A DNA stretch of 64,000 bases from Thermoanaerobaculia bacterium. Lineage in GTDB: Bacteria > Acidobacteriota > Thermoanaerobaculia > Gp7-AA8. The position numbers were made by a program, and so were the translations under genes. The stretch is from positions 79,399 through 143,398 of the forward strand of contig DASWOB010000050.1 in assembly GCA_036398925.1 (NCBI GenBank), given 5' to 3'. Within the stretch, counting starts at the first letter, position 1. The number at the start of each line of letters is the position of its first letter. Under the pieces are notes generated by a model that made no database searches, was not told the origin of the DNA, and was given only the letters and a program-made list of their open reading frames with translations. This document shows, in pieces, positions 901 through 53,646 of this stretch.

Positions 901-3164
901 TGGAAGCACGACGAGTCGTGAGGAGCGCCGCTCGTGAGTTGGCGTGGTTCGCCGCGTTCTTCGTCGCCGCGATCGTCTTCACCTGGCCGCTGGCCATCCG
1001 TCTCGAAACTTCGGTCGCTGACGCGGGCGATCCGCTGCTCAACGCCTGGATTCTCGACTGGACCTGCCACGCCCTCAGTCACGACCCCTTGAACCTCTTC
1101 AACGCGCCGATCTACCACCCCGGCCTCTTTCCGCTCGCGTACAGCGAGCACCTGGCCGGCATTGCCCTGGTCGTGCTCCCCTTTCACCTCGCCGGCCTCT
1201 CGCCGCTGACCGTCTACAACATCGCGATGCTGCTCGGCTTCGCCTTCTCGGCGTACGCCGCGTTCGTGCTCGCGCGCCTCGTGACCGGCAGCAGCATCGG
1301 CGCGCTCGCGGGCGCGCTCTTCTTCGCCTTCGGCTCGTTCGCCGTGATGCACATCTCGCACTTGCAGGTCGTCTGGAGCGGATGGCTGCCGATGCTGCTG
1401 GCGGCGCTTCTGTACTGGTGGCGTGAGCCGTCGTGGAAGCGGGCGGCGCTGCTCGGCGCGGCATTCACGATGAACGGCCTCACGAACATCTACTGGCTGC
1501 TGTACGGCGGCTTCGCGCTGGTCGTGACGATGGTGTTGCTGCACTGGAGCGCACCGCGCCGCTGGAAGCAGCTCATCGTCGCGCTGGCCGTCGCCAGCGC
1601 AATCCTCCTCCCCTTCCTCATCCCCTATCAGATGGTGTCGAAAGAATACGGCGCGGGGCGGACCAGCTTCGAAGCGCGACTCGGGTCGGCTTCGCTGCTC
1701 GACTGGGCTATGCCCTCGCCGAACAACTGGATCTATGGCGGCCTGCCGCCGCACGAGATGCAGCGCGCGGAACGACAACTCTTCCCCGGCATCGCTGTGC
1801 TGGCGCTGATCGCAATTGCCTTCTTCACCAGGCCACGCGGAGAGCGCTTCATGCGGGTCGAGCGCAACAACCGCGGCCTCGACGTCACCATCGGCGTGCT
1901 GGTCGTCATCGCCATCGCCAGCGCCCTGGCCGGCCGCGTGGAGCTCGGCCCGATTCGCTTCTCCGGTTACGACGTGCCGGCGGTGCTGGCGACCGTGCTG
2001 CTCGCCATTCGCCTCCATCGCACCTATCCCGACGCACTCGCGAAGTCGCGGTTCTCGCGTGAGGAGTGGAGCGCGTTTCTCTGGATTGCAATCGGCTTCG
2101 TCGCCTCGCTCGGCTGGAACGCCTTCCTCCACCCGTTCCTCTTTCGAGTGGTCACGCCGTTCCGCGCCACGCGCACGCCGGCACGCTGGGCGGTCATCGC
2201 CGGCGTCGGTCTCGCGGTCTGGGCGGCCATCGGTATCGCGGCGTTGCTCGCAAAGAAGACGACGCGCGCGAGGAGCATCGCTGCATTGCTGGTGGTCTTC
2301 GTGACGCTCGAAGCGATCCCCGACGTGCGGTGGGACCAGTTCCGCGCCGAGCCCGCGCCGGTCTATCGCTGGCTCGCACGCGAGCGTCCGGGCGTCGTGC
2401 TCGAATTGCCGCTGGTCAACGACGGATCGCATTTCCGCTCCGTCTTCTTCAACAGCGCGCATCGCCAGCCGATCGTCAACGGCACCTCCGGATGGGAGAC
2501 GCCGCTGCACGAGTCGCTGCGCAAGGCGGAGCTGGCGCAGCGCTTCGACGACGCGTTCCTCACTCAGGTCGAAACGGCCGGCACGAAGATCGTCATCGTC
2601 CACGCCGATGACCTCGGCCATTACGAGGCGGCGGTGAAAGCCTTTCTGCGCGCACAGCTCGCGAGTGGACGGCTGACGTTCCTCCGCCGCTTCGATCACG
2701 AGGTGAATGGCGACTATGTCTTTGCGATCGGACCCAGCACGCTGCGAGCACCCGAGGTGCCGGATGGTGCGGGCTTCCTCCCGGCGCAGAATCTGGAGCG
2801 CTGGCTCAGCGGACAGGCGACGTACAGCGACGCCATCACGGTCGTGCTGGAATCGCCGCACGGTGACGTCGGCGGCCCGCTCACGGTGCGCGGCTATGCG
2901 TTCTCACCGCACATCATTCGCGGCGTGACCGTGCTGGTCGAGCAGGGCACGCGACGTTACGAAGCGAAGCTCGTCGAGCGACCGGACGTGGCGCAGCGCT
3001 TCCCCTGGTATCGCCATTCCGCGCCTCGGCCGGGATTCGAGCTCGCGTTCGACGAACGGCCGGACGGCATTCCGGAGCGGACCGACGTGCAGGTGGAAGT
3101 GGTCGACAACGCGGGCCGGGTGATGCGTTCGCGCGACTTTGTCTTCAACTGGCGTGCGCGATAG
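900..3164 (+). CDS. Polytopic membrane protein (GT-C-fold glycosyltransferase-like, ArnT/PMT/YfhO-type) with a C-terminal periplasmic domain. A second tandem paralog.
   Basis: The ATG at 900 overlaps the upstream stop. The N-terminal half has more than 10 hydrophobic helices (e.g. LAWFAAFFVAAIVFTWPLAI, IALVVLPFHLAGL, IYWLLYGGFALVV). The C-terminal roughly 300 aa is paralogous to the 1..900 product. The family assignment is by resemblance only. Confidence 0.6.
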   Translation: MEARRVVRSAARELAWFAAFFVAAIVFTWPLAIRLETSVADAGDPLLNAWILDWTCHALSHDPLNLFNAPIYHPGLFPLAYSEHLAGIALVVLPFHLAGLSPLTVYNIAMLLGFAFSAYAAFVLARLVTGSSIGALAGALFFAFGSFAVMHISHLQVVWSGWLPMLLAALLYWWREPSWKRAALLGAAFTMNGLTNIYWLLYGGFALVVTMVLLHWSAPRRWKQLIVALAVASAILLPFLIPYQMVSKEYGAGRTSFEARLGSASLLDWAMPSPNNWIYGGLPPHEMQRAERQLFPGIAVLALIAIAFFTRPRGERFMRVERNNRGLDVTIGVLVVIAIASALAGRVELGPIRFSGYDVPAVLATVLLAIRLHRTYPDALAKSRFSREEWSAFLWIAIGFVASLGWNAFLHPFLFRVVTPFRATRTPARWAVIAGVGLAVWAAIGIAALLAKKTTRARSIAALLVVFVTLEAIPDVRWDQFRAEPAPVYRWLARERPGVVLELPLVNDGSHFRSVFFNSAHRQPIVNGTSGWETPLHESLRKAELAQRFDDAFLTQVETAGTKIVIVHADDLGHYEAAVKAFLRAQLASGRLTFLRRFDHEVNGDYVFAIGPSTLRAPEVPDGAGFLPAQNLERWLSGQATYSDAITVVLESPHGDVGGPLTVRGYAFSPHIIRGVTVLVEQGTRRYEAKLVERPDVAQRFPWYRHSAPRPGFELAFDERPDGIPERTDVQVEVVDNAGRVMRSRDFVFNWRAR

Positions 3165-6372: not shown

Positions 6373-6546
6373 GGAGCTATTCAGCTGTTCAGCTGTTCAG
6401 CTCCTCAGTTGTTCAGCGATTCAGGAGAACCTGACGGCAGCGGGGCGCGTGAGCGGGCGCGAGCTCGCCGCACATACGAACAGCGGATCCAGGGACGATG
6501 CTGCCGCCGCGTTCTCCTGAACAGCTGAGTCGCTGAACAGCTGTAA
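6373..6546. repeat. Intergenic imperfect palindrome whose arms are tandem 8-mers (CAGCTGTT)n.
   Basis: The left arm is gagctattcagctgttcagctgttcagctcctcagttgttcagcgattcaggagaacctgacggcagcgg. The right arm is ccgctgccgccgcgttctcctgaacagctgagtcgctgaacagctg. The motif is shared with 38181..38420. Confidence 0.6.
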
Positions 6547-23322: not shown

Positions 23323-23508
23323 ATGCACAACGAATTCACCGCGATCCTCGAGCGCGGCGAAGAGTGGTTCATCGCCTGCTGCCCCGAGATCCCGGGTGCC
23401 AACGGCCAAGGCCGCAGCTCGGACGAAGGCCGAGCGAACCTCGGCGAACCGATCGCGCTGATCCTCGAAGACCGGCGTGAAGATGCCCTCCGCGGGGTGC
23501 CTGCTTAG
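23323..23508 (+). CDS. HicB-like (UPF0150) antitoxin-type small protein with no adjacent HicA.
   Basis: MHNEFTAILERGEEWFIACCPEIPGANGQGRSSDEGRANLGEPIALILE fits the HicB N-domain pattern (...W.A.CPE.PG...QG.S.DEA..NL.E.I.L.LE). Confidence 0.55.
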   Translation: MHNEFTAILERGEEWFIACCPEIPGANGQGRSSDEGRANLGEPIALILEDRREDALRGVPA

Positions 23509-23774
23509 CCCGGCGACTCCGCCGGCCGCGGATTCCGCGCCGCGGCGATCTCCCGGACGATCTCGGCCGGATCGGCGCCGAGAACGTCCGAGAGTTCGAT
23601 CAACGTGCTGAGACTGGGGAGGTTCTCCCCACGCTCGACGAGTCTCAGATACTGCGGCGTCATGCCGGACCGCTGGGCGAGCTTGATGAGCGTCCAGCCG
23701 CGCTGTTGTCGCAACCTGGCGATGATTCGTCCGAGGCGGACTGCTTCCACGGTGATTCTGCGTGCTCTGACCAT
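23505..23774 (-). CDS. XRE-family helix-turn-helix transcriptional regulator (89 aa).
   Basis: LGRIIARLRQQRGWTLIKLAQRSGMTPQYLRLVERGENLPSLSTLIELSDVLG is a canonical XRE HTH. The ATG at 23774 was chosen. The longer listed ORF (to 23906) runs into the tandem repeat array. Confidence 0.55.
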   Translation of the reverse strand: MVRARRITVEAVRLGRIIARLRQQRGWTLIKLAQRSGMTPQYLRLVERGENLPSLSTLIELSDVLGADPAEIVREIAAARNPRPAESPG

Positions 23775-23846
23775 GATGCAGCGTGAGACGGCGATGAAGC
23801 CATTCCGGTTCTGCTCGCCAGTTCCCGCAATCCCCGATTCGAGCAG

Positions 23847-24207
23847 ACGGTCCGCGACCTCACGCGCGATATCCATGGATACCAGGCACACGGTCCGCGA
23901 CGTCACGCACGATATCCATGGATATCAAGCACACGGTCCGCGACCTCACGCACGATATCCATGGATATCACGCACACGGTCCGCGACCTCACGCACGATA
24001 TCCATGGATATCACGCACACGATCCGCGACCTCACGCACGATATCCATGGATATCACGCACGCGGTCCGCGACCTCACGCGTGATGGTATGGATAGCACC
24101 GGTGATGTCCATGGATATCACGCGAGCGCTCCGTGGACCCCGCGTTTGCATCCATGGATTCCAGCCGCAAAGTCCGCGAGCAGCGAAACGGAATCCATGG
24201 ATTCCGT
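23847..24207. repeat. Tandem array of 43-bp direct repeats (5 near-perfect and about 3-4 degenerate copies). Each carries the perfect 16-bp palindrome GATATCCATGGATATC.
   Basis: The palindrome starts at 23868, 23911, 23954, 23997 and 24040 (period 43). The spacer is acgcacacggtccgcgacctcacgcac. Degenerate copies run to about 24207. The array sits 73 bp upstream of the XRE gene start and 24 bp from the stop of the sugar dehydrogenase gene. Confidence 0.85.
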
Positions 24208-31046: not shown

Positions 31047-31055
31047 GAGACATCC

Positions 31056-32945
31056 ATGGATCTGTTCATCGCTATCGTCGTCGGTGCCATTTTTCTGCTC
31101 ATCGCCACCTTCGTGGTCGGCGTGATGATCGCGAAGTTCTACCGCAAGGTGGAGCAGGGGAAGGCGCTCATCGTCAACAAGATGAAGGCCGAGCCCGAGG
31201 TCACGTTCACCGGCGCGACCGTGCTGCCGATCATCCACAAGGCGGAAGTGATGGACATCTCGGTCAAGACCATCGAGATCGACCGCCGCGCGAAGGACGG
31301 CCTGATCTGCCGCGACAACATCCGCGCCGACATCAAGGTCACGTTCTTCGTCCGCGTGAACAAGACCGTCGATGACGTGATCAAGGTCGCGCAGTCGATC
31401 GGCTGCGTCCGCGCCTCCGATCCCGGCACGCTCGAAGCGCTGTTCAGCGCCAAGTTCTCCGAGGGGCTCAAGACCGTCGGCAAGCAGCTCGACTTCGTCG
31501 ACCTCTACACCAAGCGCCACGAGTTCCGCGACGCGATCATCAACCTGATCGGCCGCGACCTGAACGGCTACGTCCTCGAGGACGCCGCCATCGACTACCT
31601 CGAGCAGACGCCGATCGTGAACCTCGATCCGATGAACATCCTCGACGCGCAGGGCATCCGGAAGATCACGGAGCTGACCTCGACCGAGCACGTGCGCACG
31701 AACGAGTTCCAGAACACCGAGAAGAAGCTCACCAAGAAGCAGGACGTCGAGGCGCAGGAAGCGATCCTCGAGCTGGAGCGCCAGCAGGCCGATGCCGAGG
31801 CCAAGCAGAAGCGCGAGATCGAATCGGTCCGCGCCCGCGAGGCCGCCGAGCTGCACAAGATCCAGGCGGAGGAGCGCCGCCGCGCCGAGACCGCCCGCAT
31901 CGCCACCGACGAGGACCTGGCGATCGCCGAGCAGAACAAGCAGCGCCAGATCGAGGTCGCGCAGAAGAACCGCGAGCGCGTGGTCGGCATCGAGACCGAG
32001 CGCGTCGAGAAGGACCGCATGCTCGAGCAGGTCACGCGCGAGCGCGCCGTGGCCCTCTCGCAGATCGACAAAGAGAAGGCCCTCGAGGTCGAGCGGAAGA
32101 ACATCCAGGAAGTCATCCGCGAGCGCGTGGTCGTGGAGCGCAGCGTGGTCGAGGAGCAGGAGCGCATCAAGACCGTGCAGATGCTCGAAGACGCGAAGCG
32201 CAACCGCGAGGCGGTGATCATCGCCGCCGAGGCCGAGGCGCAGGAGAAGCTCGTCAAAGACATCAAGGCCGCCGAAGCCGCCGAGCAGGCGTCGCACCAC
32301 ATCGCCAGGCAGCGCGTCACGCTCGCGGAATCGGAAGTGGAAGCCGCCGACCGCGAAGCGCGCGCGAAGATCCGCCTCGCCGAAGGTCTGCAGGCCGAAA
32401 GCGCCGCGGAAGGGCTCGCCGCCGCGAGGGTCAAGGAAGCGGATGCCATCGCCAGCGAGAAGCATGGCCTGGCCGACATGCGCGTGAAAGAGGCCGAAGC
32501 GAACGCGATCGCGAAGCTCGGCGCGGCCGAGGCGTCGGTCATCGAGCAGAAACTCTTCGCCGAAGCGGCCGGTATCACCAAGAAGGCCGAAGCGATGAAG
32601 CAGCTCGACACCGCGTCGCGCGAGCACGAGGAGTTCCGCCTGCGCATCGAGACCGAGCGGATGCTCGGCACCGCGCACATCGCAGCGCGCCAGAAGGTCG
32701 AGGAAGCGAAAGCGCAGATCCTCGGCGTGGCGCTGCAGAACGCCAAGATCGACATCGTCGGCGGCGACGGCCAGTTCCTCGACCGCATCGTGAACTCGGT
32801 CGGAATGGGCAAAGCCGTCGACCACTTCCTCGGCGAAAGCGAGACCGCGCAGGCAGTGCTGGCGAAGCTGGGAGTGGCCAAACCGGCCAGCGAGATCGTG
32901 CCTCCGACGGTTTCGGCGAAAGTCCCGGTCGTGCGCGCCGACTAG
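31056..32945 (+). CDS. Flotillin-family SPFH/band-7 protein (YqiK/FloT-like).
   Basis: An AGGAGA RBS. An N-terminal TM helix, an SPFH domain and a long Glu/Ala/Arg-rich coiled coil (EAQEAILELERQQADAEAKQKREIE...). Confidence 0.9.
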   Translation: MDLFIAIVVGAIFLLIATFVVGVMIAKFYRKVEQGKALIVNKMKAEPEVTFTGATVLPIIHKAEVMDISVKTIEIDRRAKDGLICRDNIRADIKVTFFVRVNKTVDDVIKVAQSIGCVRASDPGTLEALFSAKFSEGLKTVGKQLDFVDLYTKRHEFRDAIINLIGRDLNGYVLEDAAIDYLEQTPIVNLDPMNILDAQGIRKITELTSTEHVRTNEFQNTEKKLTKKQDVEAQEAILELERQQADAEAKQKREIESVRAREAAELHKIQAEERRRAETARIATDEDLAIAEQNKQRQIEVAQKNRERVVGIETERVEKDRMLEQVTRERAVALSQIDKEKALEVERKNIQEVIRERVVVERSVVEEQERIKTVQMLEDAKRNREAVIIAAEAEAQEKLVKDIKAAEAAEQASHHIARQRVTLAESEVEAADREARAKIRLAEGLQAESAAEGLAAARVKEADAIASEKHGLADMRVKEAEANAIAKLGAAEASVIEQKLFAEAAGITKKAEAMKQLDTASREHEEFRLRIETERMLGTAHIAARQKVEEAKAQILGVALQNAKIDIVGGDGQFLDRIVNSVGMGKAVDHFLGESETAQAVLAKLGVAKPASEIVPPTVSAKVPVVRAD

Positions 32946-38180: not shown

Positions 38181-38420
38181 CGGTGAGCCTTTGAGCTGTT
38201 GAGCTGTTGAGCTGTTGAGCGAGAAGTGTGAATGGAACCAGAGTCAACAACTCACTTCCTCGCTCAATAGCTCAATAGCTCAACAGCTAAAAAGCTCGAA
38301 CCCGGAGCTGTTCAGCTGTTCAGGCGAGGAAGTGAATTGTTGATTCTGGTTTTATCCACACTTCATCGCTCAACAGCTCAACACCTGAACAGCTGAACAG
38401 CTGAATAGCTGAATAGCTCA
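38181..38420. repeat. Two adjacent imperfect palindromes built from tandem 8-mers (GAGCTGTT / CAGCTGTT / TCAATAGC).
   Basis: gagctgttgagctgttgagctgttgagcgagaagtg...cacttcctcgctcaatagctcaatagctcaacagct, and cagctgttcagctgttcaggcgaggaagtg...cacttcatcgctcaacagctcaacacctgaacagctgaacagctg. The region is AT-richer than the surrounding sequence. Confidence 0.7.
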
Positions 38421-38451
38421 ACAGCTCGAAGGCGAAGCCCCCACGACCCGG

Positions 38452-39825: not shown

Positions 39826-40122
39826 ATGGAGATCGCGCACGACGGGAAGCAAAATTTGCACGACGGGAAGAGCCGCGCTCACGCCGGGAAGAGCGTTTTC
39901 CACGCGGGGAAGAAAAAGTTGCTCGACGGGAAGGGCGTGGCTCACGACGGGAAGAGCGGCGCTCTCGATCGGAAGGACTTTTTTCACGGCGGCAAGAGCG
40001 GCGGCCACGATCGGAAGAGCGTTTCTCACGAGCGCATCAGAATTTTCCTCGAGCGCGAGAGCCGCCGTCACGACCGGAGCAGCGTCCTTCATCGAATTGT
40101 GACGCTCGCTCATCAGCGTTGA
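39826..40122 (+). CDS. Possible small protein made of HDGKSxx heptad repeats, encoded by a 21-bp tandem DNA array. The coding status is uncertain.
   Basis: About 12 imperfect 21-bp repeats (cacgacgggaagagcg.....) between 39835 and 40095. The plus frame has about 77% GC3, versus about 64% for the antisense ALPVVxx frame. The stop overlaps the next ORF. Confidence 0.3.
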   Translation: MEIAHDGKQNLHDGKSRAHAGKSVFHAGKKKLLDGKGVAHDGKSGALDRKDFFHGGKSGGHDRKSVSHERIRIFLERESRRHDRSSVLHRIVTLAHQR

Positions 40123-43690: not shown

Positions 43691-43803
43691 GGATGGAGGA
43701 TTGGAGGATTGAGGATTGAGGAATCCCCCCTCCCCGCGTTCGCGCCGCTCATCCTCTCATCCGAACACCCCTTCCTCAATCCTCAATTCTCAATCCTCAA
43801 TCC
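43691..43803. repeat. Hairpin with arms of tandem heptamers (GGATTGA)n / (CCTCAAT)n, directly upstream of relA/spoT.
   Basis: ggatggaggattggaggattgaggattgaggaat ... cttcctcaatcctcaattctcaatcctcaatcc. It begins 12 bp from the relA start codon. Confidence 0.7.
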
Positions 43804-49751: not shown

Positions 49752-49849
49752 CAGTTCCTCGGTTCCTCGGGTTCCTCGGAGTTCCTTGGCAGGAACCTGA
49801 GACTTGCCGAGGAACCGAGGAACTCCGAGGAACCGAGGAACCGCTTTTT
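49752..49849 (+). terminator. Repeat-built hairpin terminator of (GTTCCTCGG)n / (CCGAGGAAC)n, followed by TTTTT.
   Basis: gttcctcggttcctcgggttcctcggagttcc...ggaactccgaggaaccgaggaaccgc TTTTTC. It lies between two convergent stops (49749 on plus, 49850 on minus). Confidence 0.6.
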
Positions 49850-50640: not shown

Positions 50641-50745
50641 GAAGGGCCGAGGGCCGAGGGCTGAGGGCCGAGGGGGCGCAGGGCGAGTGCGGGGCAGCCG
50701 CGCCGCGGCTCCCTCGGCCCTCGACCCTCGGCCCTTGGCCCTCGC
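50641..50745. repeat. Intercistronic hairpin between sdhA and sdhB with arms of tandem (GGGCCGAG)n.
   Basis: gaagggccgagggccgagggctgagggccgagggg ... ccctcggccctcgaccctcggcccttggccctcgc. It ends at the sdhA stop and lies 25 bp upstream of the sdhB start. No U-tract follows. Confidence 0.7.
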
Positions 50746-53504: not shown

Positions 53505-53646
53505 AGCGAGCGATGACCGATGAACGATGAGCGATGAACGATGAACGATCTGCCGGTTCCCCGTTCATCGCTCATCTCTCATCGCTCATCTCTCATCGCT
53601 CATCTCTCATCGCTCATCTCTCATCTCTCATCGCTCATCGTTCGGT
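53505..53646. repeat. Asymmetric hairpin of tandem heptamers (CGATGAA/CGATGAG)n versus (TCATCGC/TCATCTC)n in the divergent region between sdhC and the ABC gene.
   Basis: The left arm has about 5 units (53505-53550). The right arm has about 11 units (53563-53646). Confidence 0.7.

Follow-up and report, generated by a model that had tools for sequence, protein, structure and literature searches.

Small regulators of the XRE family (Cro/C1-type helix-turn-helix, HTH) commonly regulate their own genes through one to four operators, an arrangement of textbook standing, and repressors of the lambdoid and P2 type likewise autoregulate, through operators that lie on the same face of the DNA at a pitch of about 21 base pairs (bp) and are bound with pairwise cooperativity. 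The present analysis concerns a 43-bp tandem array of palindromes directly upstream of a gene for a small XRE protein, in a stretch of 64,000 nucleotides (nt) of contig DASWOB010000050.1 from a Thermoanaerobaculia bacterium of the phylum Acidobacteriota; this whole stretch is referred to below as the window. Several described systems resemble one or another feature of the array. In type II restriction-modification systems, the genes of the controller (C) proteins are under autoregulation; the palindromic sites involved are placed at a constant, short distance from the ATG, and the transcripts are leaderless (PMC2632904). The hipBA operon of Shewanella oneidensis has four operators that are evenly spaced, 34 bp apart (PMC4150777). 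In sopC of the F plasmid, a 43-bp unit that contains a 16-bp inverted repeat is repeated 12 times (PMC3177203).

The regulator beside the window array is encoded at 23505..23774 on the minus strand and comprises 89 amino acids (aa); the assignment draws on a match to Pfam HTH_3 (E 8e-15, 55 bits vs. a cut-off of 23), a structure model from AlphaFold2 (AF2) and an orthologue alignment. The database product, P0001, which derives from a metagenome-assembled genome (MAG) and is annotated as 'helix-turn-helix transcriptional regulator [Thermoanaerobaculia bacterium]', is 123 aa long and starts at an ATG within the first palindrome. We placed the start at 23774 because orthologues share the N-terminus MVRARRITVEA at that ATG; compared with them, the 123-aa call is over-extended, running into the array. 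The AF2 model (predicted local distance difference test score, pLDDT, of 86) shows a single domain of five helices (residues 9-25, 29-36, 40-47, 55-65 and 69-80) with disordered ends, the N-terminal one forming a basic arm (MVRARR...). By profile and Foldseek searches, the nearest solved structures were C.BclI, C.AhdI and ClgR, followed by DdrO, SinR and C.Esp1396I, with HipB distant; the matches to 2b5a and 1y7y had template modelling (TM) scores of 0.7-0.9, root-mean-square deviations of 1.0-1.6 Å and profile E values of about 4e-9. No curated NCBIfam model reached its cut-off with the protein, the HipB or Y4mF models TIGR03070 and NF007271 scoring 29.7 bits (cut-off 71.65) and 15.3 bits (cut-off 79), respectively, and the PADLOC models of control proteins matched weakly (E 1e-4).

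The C proteins are the closest functional counterpart. C.AhdI, C.BclI, C.PvuII and C.Esp1396I are, like the window protein, small single-domain XRE proteins that act as dimers, they provide the best matches in both sequence and fold, and their regulatory logic, in which a strong distal site leads to a weak, repressing proximal site (PMC2632904), resembles the arrangement proposed below. However, C-boxes comprise two adjacent dimer sites within about 35 bp, whereas the loci examined here carry 2-10 sites arranged on a 21/42-bp lattice that extends over as much as 450 bp, and C proteins have restriction and methylase neighbours, whereas no restriction endonuclease or methyltransferase gene was found within 10 kb of the XRE gene in the window or at four related loci (L195, L197, L199 and L200). 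HipB is similar in being an XRE protein of about 88 aa with several palindromic operators upstream of its own operon (PMC4150777), and its half-site TATCC resembles ATATCC of the window; HipB differs in having the toxin HipA as a partner, which is missing beside the window gene, and in the spacing and number of the sites. The geometry of sopC is identical to that of the window array. Nevertheless, its protein SopB belongs to the ParB family and works with the ATPase SopA on a plasmid, neither of which is present at the window locus, and the relatives of the window module have non-tandem sites. Repressors of the lambdoid and P2 type, finally, differ in carrying a separate oligomerisation domain, which the 89-aa protein lacks, and the window locus is not a prophage.

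We favour, with a probability of about two in three, the reading that the palindromes are operators of the adjacent XRE dimer and that the region forms a helically phased autoregulatory control region. In the window, Tandem Repeats Finder (TRF) reported a 43-bp repeat at 23843..24080 (5.5 copies, 94% matches, score 420) that is by far the strongest in the entire stretch. The array (23843..24100, without strand) comprises five near-identical units followed by a degenerate sixth, each unit consisting of a 16-bp palindrome and a 27-bp spacer: the units starting at 23843, 23886, 23929, 23972 and 24015 differ from the central unit at 4, 2, 0, 0 and 1 positions, respectively, and the sixth (24058) at 16 positions. 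The perfect 16-mer GATATCCATGGATATC occurs in four copies (at 23911, 23954, 23997 and 24040), with one-mismatch copies at 23868 and 24104; allowing up to three mismatches, there are 7 matches in the window, compared with 0.09 expected from shuffled sequences. The 10-bp core ATCCATGGAT is present in 8 copies, 7 of them inside the array, vs. 0.07 expected. The hexamer CCATGG by itself is not enriched across the window (22 observed vs. 21.9 expected), but 8 of the 22 occurrences fall within the 340 bp of the array. The number of 43-bp units is subject to the uncertainty of a short-read metagenome assembly.

In total, the array region contains eight CCATGG-centred palindromes, numbered here as candidate operators 1 to 8 from the XRE gene outwards, and one degenerate copy, with centre-to-centre spacings of 43, 43, 43, 43, 64, 43 and 43 bp. 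Candidate operator 1 (GATATCCATGGATACC; 23868..23883) has one mismatch and is centred at −101.5 from the ATG; operators 2 to 5 are perfect 16-bp palindromes at 23911..23926, 23954..23969, 23997..24012 and 24040..24055, centred at −144.5, −187.5, −230.5 and −273.5, respectively. Next on the lattice is the decayed copy (GATGGTATGGATAGCA; 24083..24098, centre −316.5), which is probably not bound. Operator 6 (GATGTCCATGGATATC; 24104..24119, centre −337.5) is shifted by 43 + 21 bp and, coming after the degenerate sixth unit, stands half a unit (21 bp) out of the tandem register, and operators 7 and 8 follow at further 43-bp steps. Operator 7 (TGCATCCATGGATTCC; 24147..24162, centre −380.5) and operator 8, a perfect 20-bp palindrome (ACGGAATCCATGGATTCCGT; 24188..24207, centre −423.5) separated by 24 bp from the stop codon of GSDH, the gene upstream, retain the core ATCCATGGAT, with flanks that differ from the 16-mer. 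Midway between the sites, the window units carry a mini-repeat, GGTC-CGC-GACC, that is specific to the lineage of the window. Because 43 is not a multiple of 3, open reading frames (ORFs) through the array shift frame at each unit. A first-pass annotation made from the sequence had described about eight units beginning roughly 73 bp from the XRE gene; this count is fair, and the distance is 73 bp. It had also set aside a CRISPR array on the grounds of identical spacers, which agrees with the unit-by-unit comparison and with the lack of cas genes within 10 kb. Its description of five essentially identical units was likewise borne out, although the perfect palindrome that it assigned to each of them is exact in only four.

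The same motif was found beside the relatives of the window gene. About 20 independent loci encoding proteins with 44-74% identity to the window XRE protein were inspected. A first search yielded five relatives (53-71% identity), and in their contigs, TRF detected no 42-43-bp tandem repeat upstream of the XRE gene; each had 3-10 imperfect palindromes centred on CCATGG, the centres being 42-44, 63-65, 84-86 or 108 bp apart. A scan of metagenomes with the protein alignment gave 64 loci, among which 18 close ones (44-56% identity, full length) have the same layout, and it recurs at four additional loci in MAGs taken from NCBI and JGI (Thermoanaerobaculia and 'Acidobacteria bacterium'). Across the approximately 20 loci, the 100-450 bp upstream of the XRE gene contain 2-10 sites with the core A(A/T)CCATGG(A/T)T, the only positions that are informative family-wide; no second conserved element was detected in the spacers across the family. 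When the upstream regions of three orthologues are aligned, the sites appear as islands of conservation, and the core of one site is lost in two of the three sequences. At one of the 18 close loci, L141 (46% identity), the sites (2630..2880) follow a variant palindrome, ATAGCC-NN-GGCTAT, the centre of which is CT, AA, GT or AT in place of the CCATGG type, with distances of 86, 130 and 22 bp. Given this variable centre, the invariant contacts may be the CC/GG pairs rather than the central AT.

The association of the motif with this group of XRE genes is exclusive. Within the 450 bp upstream of the XRE ATG in 16 non-redundant loci, CCATGG occurs 86 times in 7248 bp (11.9 per kb), compared with 8 occurrences in 71763 bp elsewhere in the same loci (0.11 per kb) and, for 39 more distant XRE genes returned by the metagenome scan, 2 in 21242 bp of upstream sequence (0.09 per kb). 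No neighbouring gene is conserved, and the XRE gene alone is common to the loci; the downstream genes differ from locus to locus and encode the HicB-like ORF discussed below, a 196-aa membrane protein, Uma2, an SH3 protein, LytTR or an amidohydrolase. With no conserved neighbour, models that invoke a toxin-antitoxin, restriction-modification or partition operon were dropped. The first-pass annotation had taken the palindrome for the site of a dimeric HTH protein and, as one option, a multi-operator autoregulatory region; the occurrence of the motif upstream of the XRE gene in about 20 loci supports this proposal. One relative, L136 (47% identity), has a tandem array of its own at 2606..2950 (42 bp × 8; ACGTTAGCCATGGACACCTG...), from which it follows that amplification of an operator unit occurred independently in another lineage.

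A profile search retrieved 227 proteins at E ≤ 1e-10. The best 120 of these are 45-74% identical to the query and 73-156 aa long (most of them 81-135 aa); almost all originate from metagenomes of soil and sediment, the organism, where one is given, is a Thermoanaerobaculia or Acidobacteria MAG, and none of the members has a specific name. In a search of 1.84 billion cluster representatives, 655 proteins were found at E ≤ 1e-10, and of the top 150, about 55 match over their full length as single-domain proteins, so that the subfamily covers dozens of clusters at 50% identity. We define this subfamily by an XRE protein of 80-100 aa with an MPR/MVR N-terminal arm and at least 44% identity to the query, and by at least two A(A/T)CCATGG(A/T)T sites upstream on the 21/42-bp lattice; the window locus, with eight sites on the lattice, belongs to it. 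The window XRE protein is a member of an uncharacterised subfamily from Acidobacteriota, with phased CCATGG sites as its putative operators. Among the sequences collected, L200, L202 and L203 are three assemblies of one Acidobacteria locus carrying P0087. Each of the contigs L200-L203 breaks off 140-260 bp beyond the 3' end of the XRE gene, which suggests a repeated or hard-to-assemble element just past it. The search of cluster representatives also returned proteins with 6-13 tandem XRE-type HTH domains and lengths of about 450 to 5640 aa (P0121-P0126, P0128, P0137, P0162, P0200 and P0256); these outscore single-domain relatives by summed score and are unrelated to the array, their architecture being unusual in itself.

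The spacing of the sites is regular across the family. Among 70 spacings between adjacent sites in the 16 loci, 45 are 41-44 bp, 6 are 63-65 bp and 13 are 83-86 bp, and spacings at odd numbers of helical turns are almost absent. In a Rayleigh test, the strongest signal is at 21 bp (R = 0.89, p about 1e-24; p about 1e-18 without the two tandem-repeat loci). This optimum translates into a helical repeat of 10.5-10.6 bp, so that the sites share one face of the helix; they follow a two-turn (~21-bp) lattice in which, mostly, every second slot is filled. In most loci, the 30 flanking positions of the units show 0.24-0.29 identity, compared with 0.25-0.27 expected by chance; the values are 0.62 in the window and 0.61 in L136. 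Divergence that randomises spacers normally also brings insertions and deletions (indels). The spacers have diverged to chance identity and the spacing has nevertheless been kept, and spacings of one and a half units recur; judged against general indel rates, this argues for constraint on the spacing. The 43-bp spacing of the window reflects a family-wide lattice and is more than a by-product of recent duplication. A more degenerate tandem array elsewhere in the window (39834..40031; consensus CACGACGGGAAGAGCG..., periods 21/42/63, 60-68% matches) has the period of the operator lattice (21/42 bp) and a different motif.

The lattice is also anchored to the start of the gene. In 11 of 20 loci, including L195 and, after correction of its start, L200, the centre of the proximal site lies at −18.5 (±1) from the ATG, with further sites at −60.5, −102.5, −144.5 and onward. 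A TAnnnT hexamer is located 3-6 bases past the proximal CCATGG and ends 7-8 nt before the ATG; in L138, L139 and L142, it is a perfect TATAAT. No Shine-Dalgarno sequence was found between the hexamer and the ATG in the relatives. From this −10-like element at its short distance from the ATG and the missing Shine-Dalgarno sequence, we infer that the mRNA of the relatives is leaderless and that the core promoter overlaps the proximal operator. In the window, comparison of 23700..23960 (minus strand) with positions 1..260 of L195 indicates that both promoter-proximal sites have decayed. The relic of the proximal operator (23791..23800), read on the minus strand, has changed from GATCCATGGA, which L195 has at −18.5, to GCTTCATCGC, with a 2-bp insertion; the relic of the second operator, at about −59 (23826..23840), reads GAATCGGGGATTGCG on the minus strand compared with GGATCCATGGATTTCG in L195 (−61.5). 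The units from −101.5 to −273.5, by contrast, are a fivefold amplification that is young, as judged from their 91-100% identity.

The outer bases of the half-sites vary among the relatives (ATATCC, ACATCC, ACGTCC, CAACC, TAGCC and others) and partly track the residue that precedes the conserved Tyr of helix 3: Thr tends to occur with half-sites in which AA precedes CC, and Gln, His or Arg with those in which (A/G)T precedes CC. This is suggestive, and no more than suggestive, of half-site bases that follow the helix-3 residue. The centre of the site is invariant and the basic N-terminal arm (MPR/MVR) is conserved, which, by analogy with lambda repressor, suggests that the arm contacts the DNA at the dyad.

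In the mechanism that we consider most probable, XRE dimers would occupy the CCATGG palindromes upstream of their own gene, all on one face of the DNA, and occupation of the −18.5 site would shut the promoter off. The better upstream palindromes would fill before the others and then load or stabilise the weak proximal site, presumably in a cooperative manner, and the upstream sites might perhaps activate transcription, as in controller-protein and lambdoid-repressor circuits. In the window lineage, the five distal units arose by recent tandem duplication, and the two proximal operators decayed. With the proximal operators decayed, simple promoter occlusion is not an option in this lineage and control would have to come from the array, acting from −100 and beyond through a roadblock, looping, a higher-order structure or a promoter inside the array. 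Several observations weigh against this autoregulatory interpretation. The decay of both proximal operators in the window is itself one of them, and a single weak match to a promoter consensus (24111..24084, minus strand) lies inside the array and is built from operator sequence. Small dimers bound 42 bp (about 143 Å) apart are too far from one another for direct contact as long as the DNA is straight. The lattice could persist in part via repeated duplication or deletion of whole units, rather than through selection on phase. The covariation between half-sites and helix 3 is imperfect and was computed without phylogenetic correction. All members of the family come from uncultured organisms.

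The surroundings of the gene are those of an ordinary chromosomal region. The 20 kb around the XRE gene encode GSDH, a GDSL lipase, a Na+/H+ exchanger, ribosomal protein L28 (rpmB) and pilMNOPQ, and no ParA, ParB, Rep or integrase gene was identified within 10 kb on either side in the list of genes and Pfam matches. The GC content around the array is flat (0.63-0.69), so that the atypical composition that the first-pass annotation had proposed to look for in the flanks is lacking, as are the nearby ParA/ParB or Rep genes. The GC-skew profile of the window has no turning point at the array. The 74%-identical orthologue in L195 occupies the same place, beside a 196-aa gene, rpmB and pilMNOPQ, and it is this synteny that marks the locus as chromosomal and inherited. 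No relative of the XRE protein was found in plasmid, phage or viral-contig collections, and the array DNA had no match in plasmid or phage collections; in viral contigs, the pattern of three CCATGG sites 42-43 bp apart retrieved five unrelated 42-bp repeats, four of them in low-GC contigs, which we judged to be coding from their period alone. In a scan of genome contigs, the 16-mer appeared only as single chance occurrences among the matches listed.

The gene that separates the XRE gene from its neighbour in the window is the 61-aa HicB-like ORF (23323..23508, plus strand), which lies exactly between the convergent XRE gene and a 198-aa gene. The ORF has no match in Pfam or NCBIfam, its sole match being to Protein Data Bank entry 2yzt (E 0.004), and it is absent from L195, where the XRE gene and the neighbouring gene overlap by 4 bp. 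In light of this absence from the syntenic locus, it is a lineage-specific insertion without a HicA partner. Since the ORF is both missing from L195 and without a Pfam or NCBIfam match, its pairing with the XRE gene is incidental. The label 'HicB-like' used in the first-pass annotation is weakly supported, and the link is not conserved.

The principal competing explanations concern what the array is for. It could be that one or two operators suffice for autoregulation, the long array being a near-neutral expansion by slippage or unequal recombination and the spacing a trace of duplication. The youth of the window units, the independent 42-bp × 8 expansion in L136, the variation in the number of sites from 2 to 10 among relatives and the decay of single sites in close relatives all fit such a history; we consider it unlikely as a full account, however, because the spacing stays within about 1 bp of the lattice where the spacers are at chance identity and neutral indels would blur it, because many loci have half-unit spacings of 63-64 bp that whole-unit events cannot produce, and because 11 of 20 loci have the lattice anchored at −18.5 from the ATG. 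Alternatively, the array and its protein might form a self-contained protein-DNA lattice whose main role is not the transcription of xre, such as a sink that buffers free regulator by titration, a bistable memory switch, a pairing site or landmark of the chromosome, or an obstacle to replication or transcription. There are precedents in Tus-TerB and RTP-Ter, where binding sites lie beside the gene of their own binding protein; up to 10 sites far exceed what autoregulation needs, the module is autonomous in that no neighbour is conserved, almost no more sites occur in the flanking 10-60 kb, which leaves no obvious regulon, and the best palindromes are the distal ones. The anchoring of the lattice on the core promoter and ATG of xre points the other way, as do the absence of a partner ATPase and of a GC-skew turning point at the array, and we regard this role as distinctly unlikely.

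Other readings fare worse. The identity of the geometry with that of F-plasmid sopC speaks for a centromere-like (sopC/parC-type) site left behind by an integrated plasmid or phage. This is highly improbable for a protein with a plain XRE domain, as opposed to ParB, RHH or TubR, at a syntenic chromosomal locus of ordinary GC content at which no other DNA-binding protein is encoded beside the array, with no ParA, ParM, TubZ, Rep or integrase gene within 10 kb and neither a relative nor a comparable array in the plasmid, phage or viral collections. An element acting at the RNA level (hairpins in a 5' untranslated region or small RNA, or terminators of the upstream GSDH gene) appears equally improbable. 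A hairpin can form from every palindrome, the GSDH gene that precedes the region points in the same direction, and the promoter-like match at 24111..24084 would give a leader with five palindromes; yet no Rfam model matched (chance hits to microRNA models were below threshold) and no terminator-like site was found, conservation is greatest in the middle of the palindrome, where the loop would form, and the arms are variable, the spacing follows the helical repeat of DNA, and in the relatives, the array is followed by a −10-like element whose position suits a leaderless start. Iterons of a replication origin or a CRISPR-like array would account for the regular 43-bp tandem repeats, but the repeat is palindromic and not directional, there is no rep gene within 10 kb, no AT-rich unwinding element accompanies the array (GC 0.65), and the relatives keep the sites without the tandem repeat, so that we give these possibilities virtually no weight. 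The iteron and partition-site resemblances raised in the first-pass annotation, together with the mobile-element remnant, find no support in the analysis, and autoregulation by phased operators remains the preferred interpretation.

Some other features of the window deserve mention. Outside the array, the core ATCCATGGAT appears just once more, at 31049..31064 (GACATCCATGGATCTG). The ATG that it contains is the start codon of a 629-aa ORF (31056..32945, plus strand), located 9 bp past the stop of a 218-aa ORF; both are in an operon with a 1692-aa DUF3686/AAA/DUF7902 protein, and neither of the two ORFs has a PADLOC hit. This copy could be a target of the XRE protein in trans or a chance match. 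In at least six places (6375..6543, 38191..38427, 43691..43803, 49754..49843, 50643..50744 and 53511..53640), there are inverted pairs of runs of 7-8-bp tandem repeats, e.g. (GTTCCTCG)n ... (CCGAGGAA)n followed by TTTTT, each of which would fold into a long hairpin of repeated octamers or heptamers, an unusual style; the pair at 49754..49843, with a convergent ORF ending on either side of it, resembles a bidirectional terminator.

A bolder version of the phased-operator interpretation, which we put forward tentatively and consider doubtful, is that the XRE protein and its array form an autonomous and previously undescribed nucleoprotein device. Up to 10 dimers, one every four helical turns, might then produce wrapped or solenoidal DNA or bridged gyres, and the device might, in addition to forming a feedback loop, work as a switch that is ultrasensitive or heritable, buffer by titration or mark a position on the chromosome; the differing half-sites would make the family members mutually orthogonal. 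In the literature searched, we found no description of a CCATGG-phased XRE family, nor of a lattice of up to 10 same-face operators at four-turn pitch in diverged Acidobacteriota. For annotation, the analysis corrects the 123-aa gene call. For the biology of the family, the lattice amounts to a natural experiment on operator number and helical phase in a feedback loop, with a simple design rule, namely, sites at −18.5 minus multiples of 42 bp, and the window captures operator turnover, with distal tandem amplification together with proximal decay. The family also offers a candidate set of possibly orthogonal protein-site pairs in a phylum in which gene regulation is almost unstudied.

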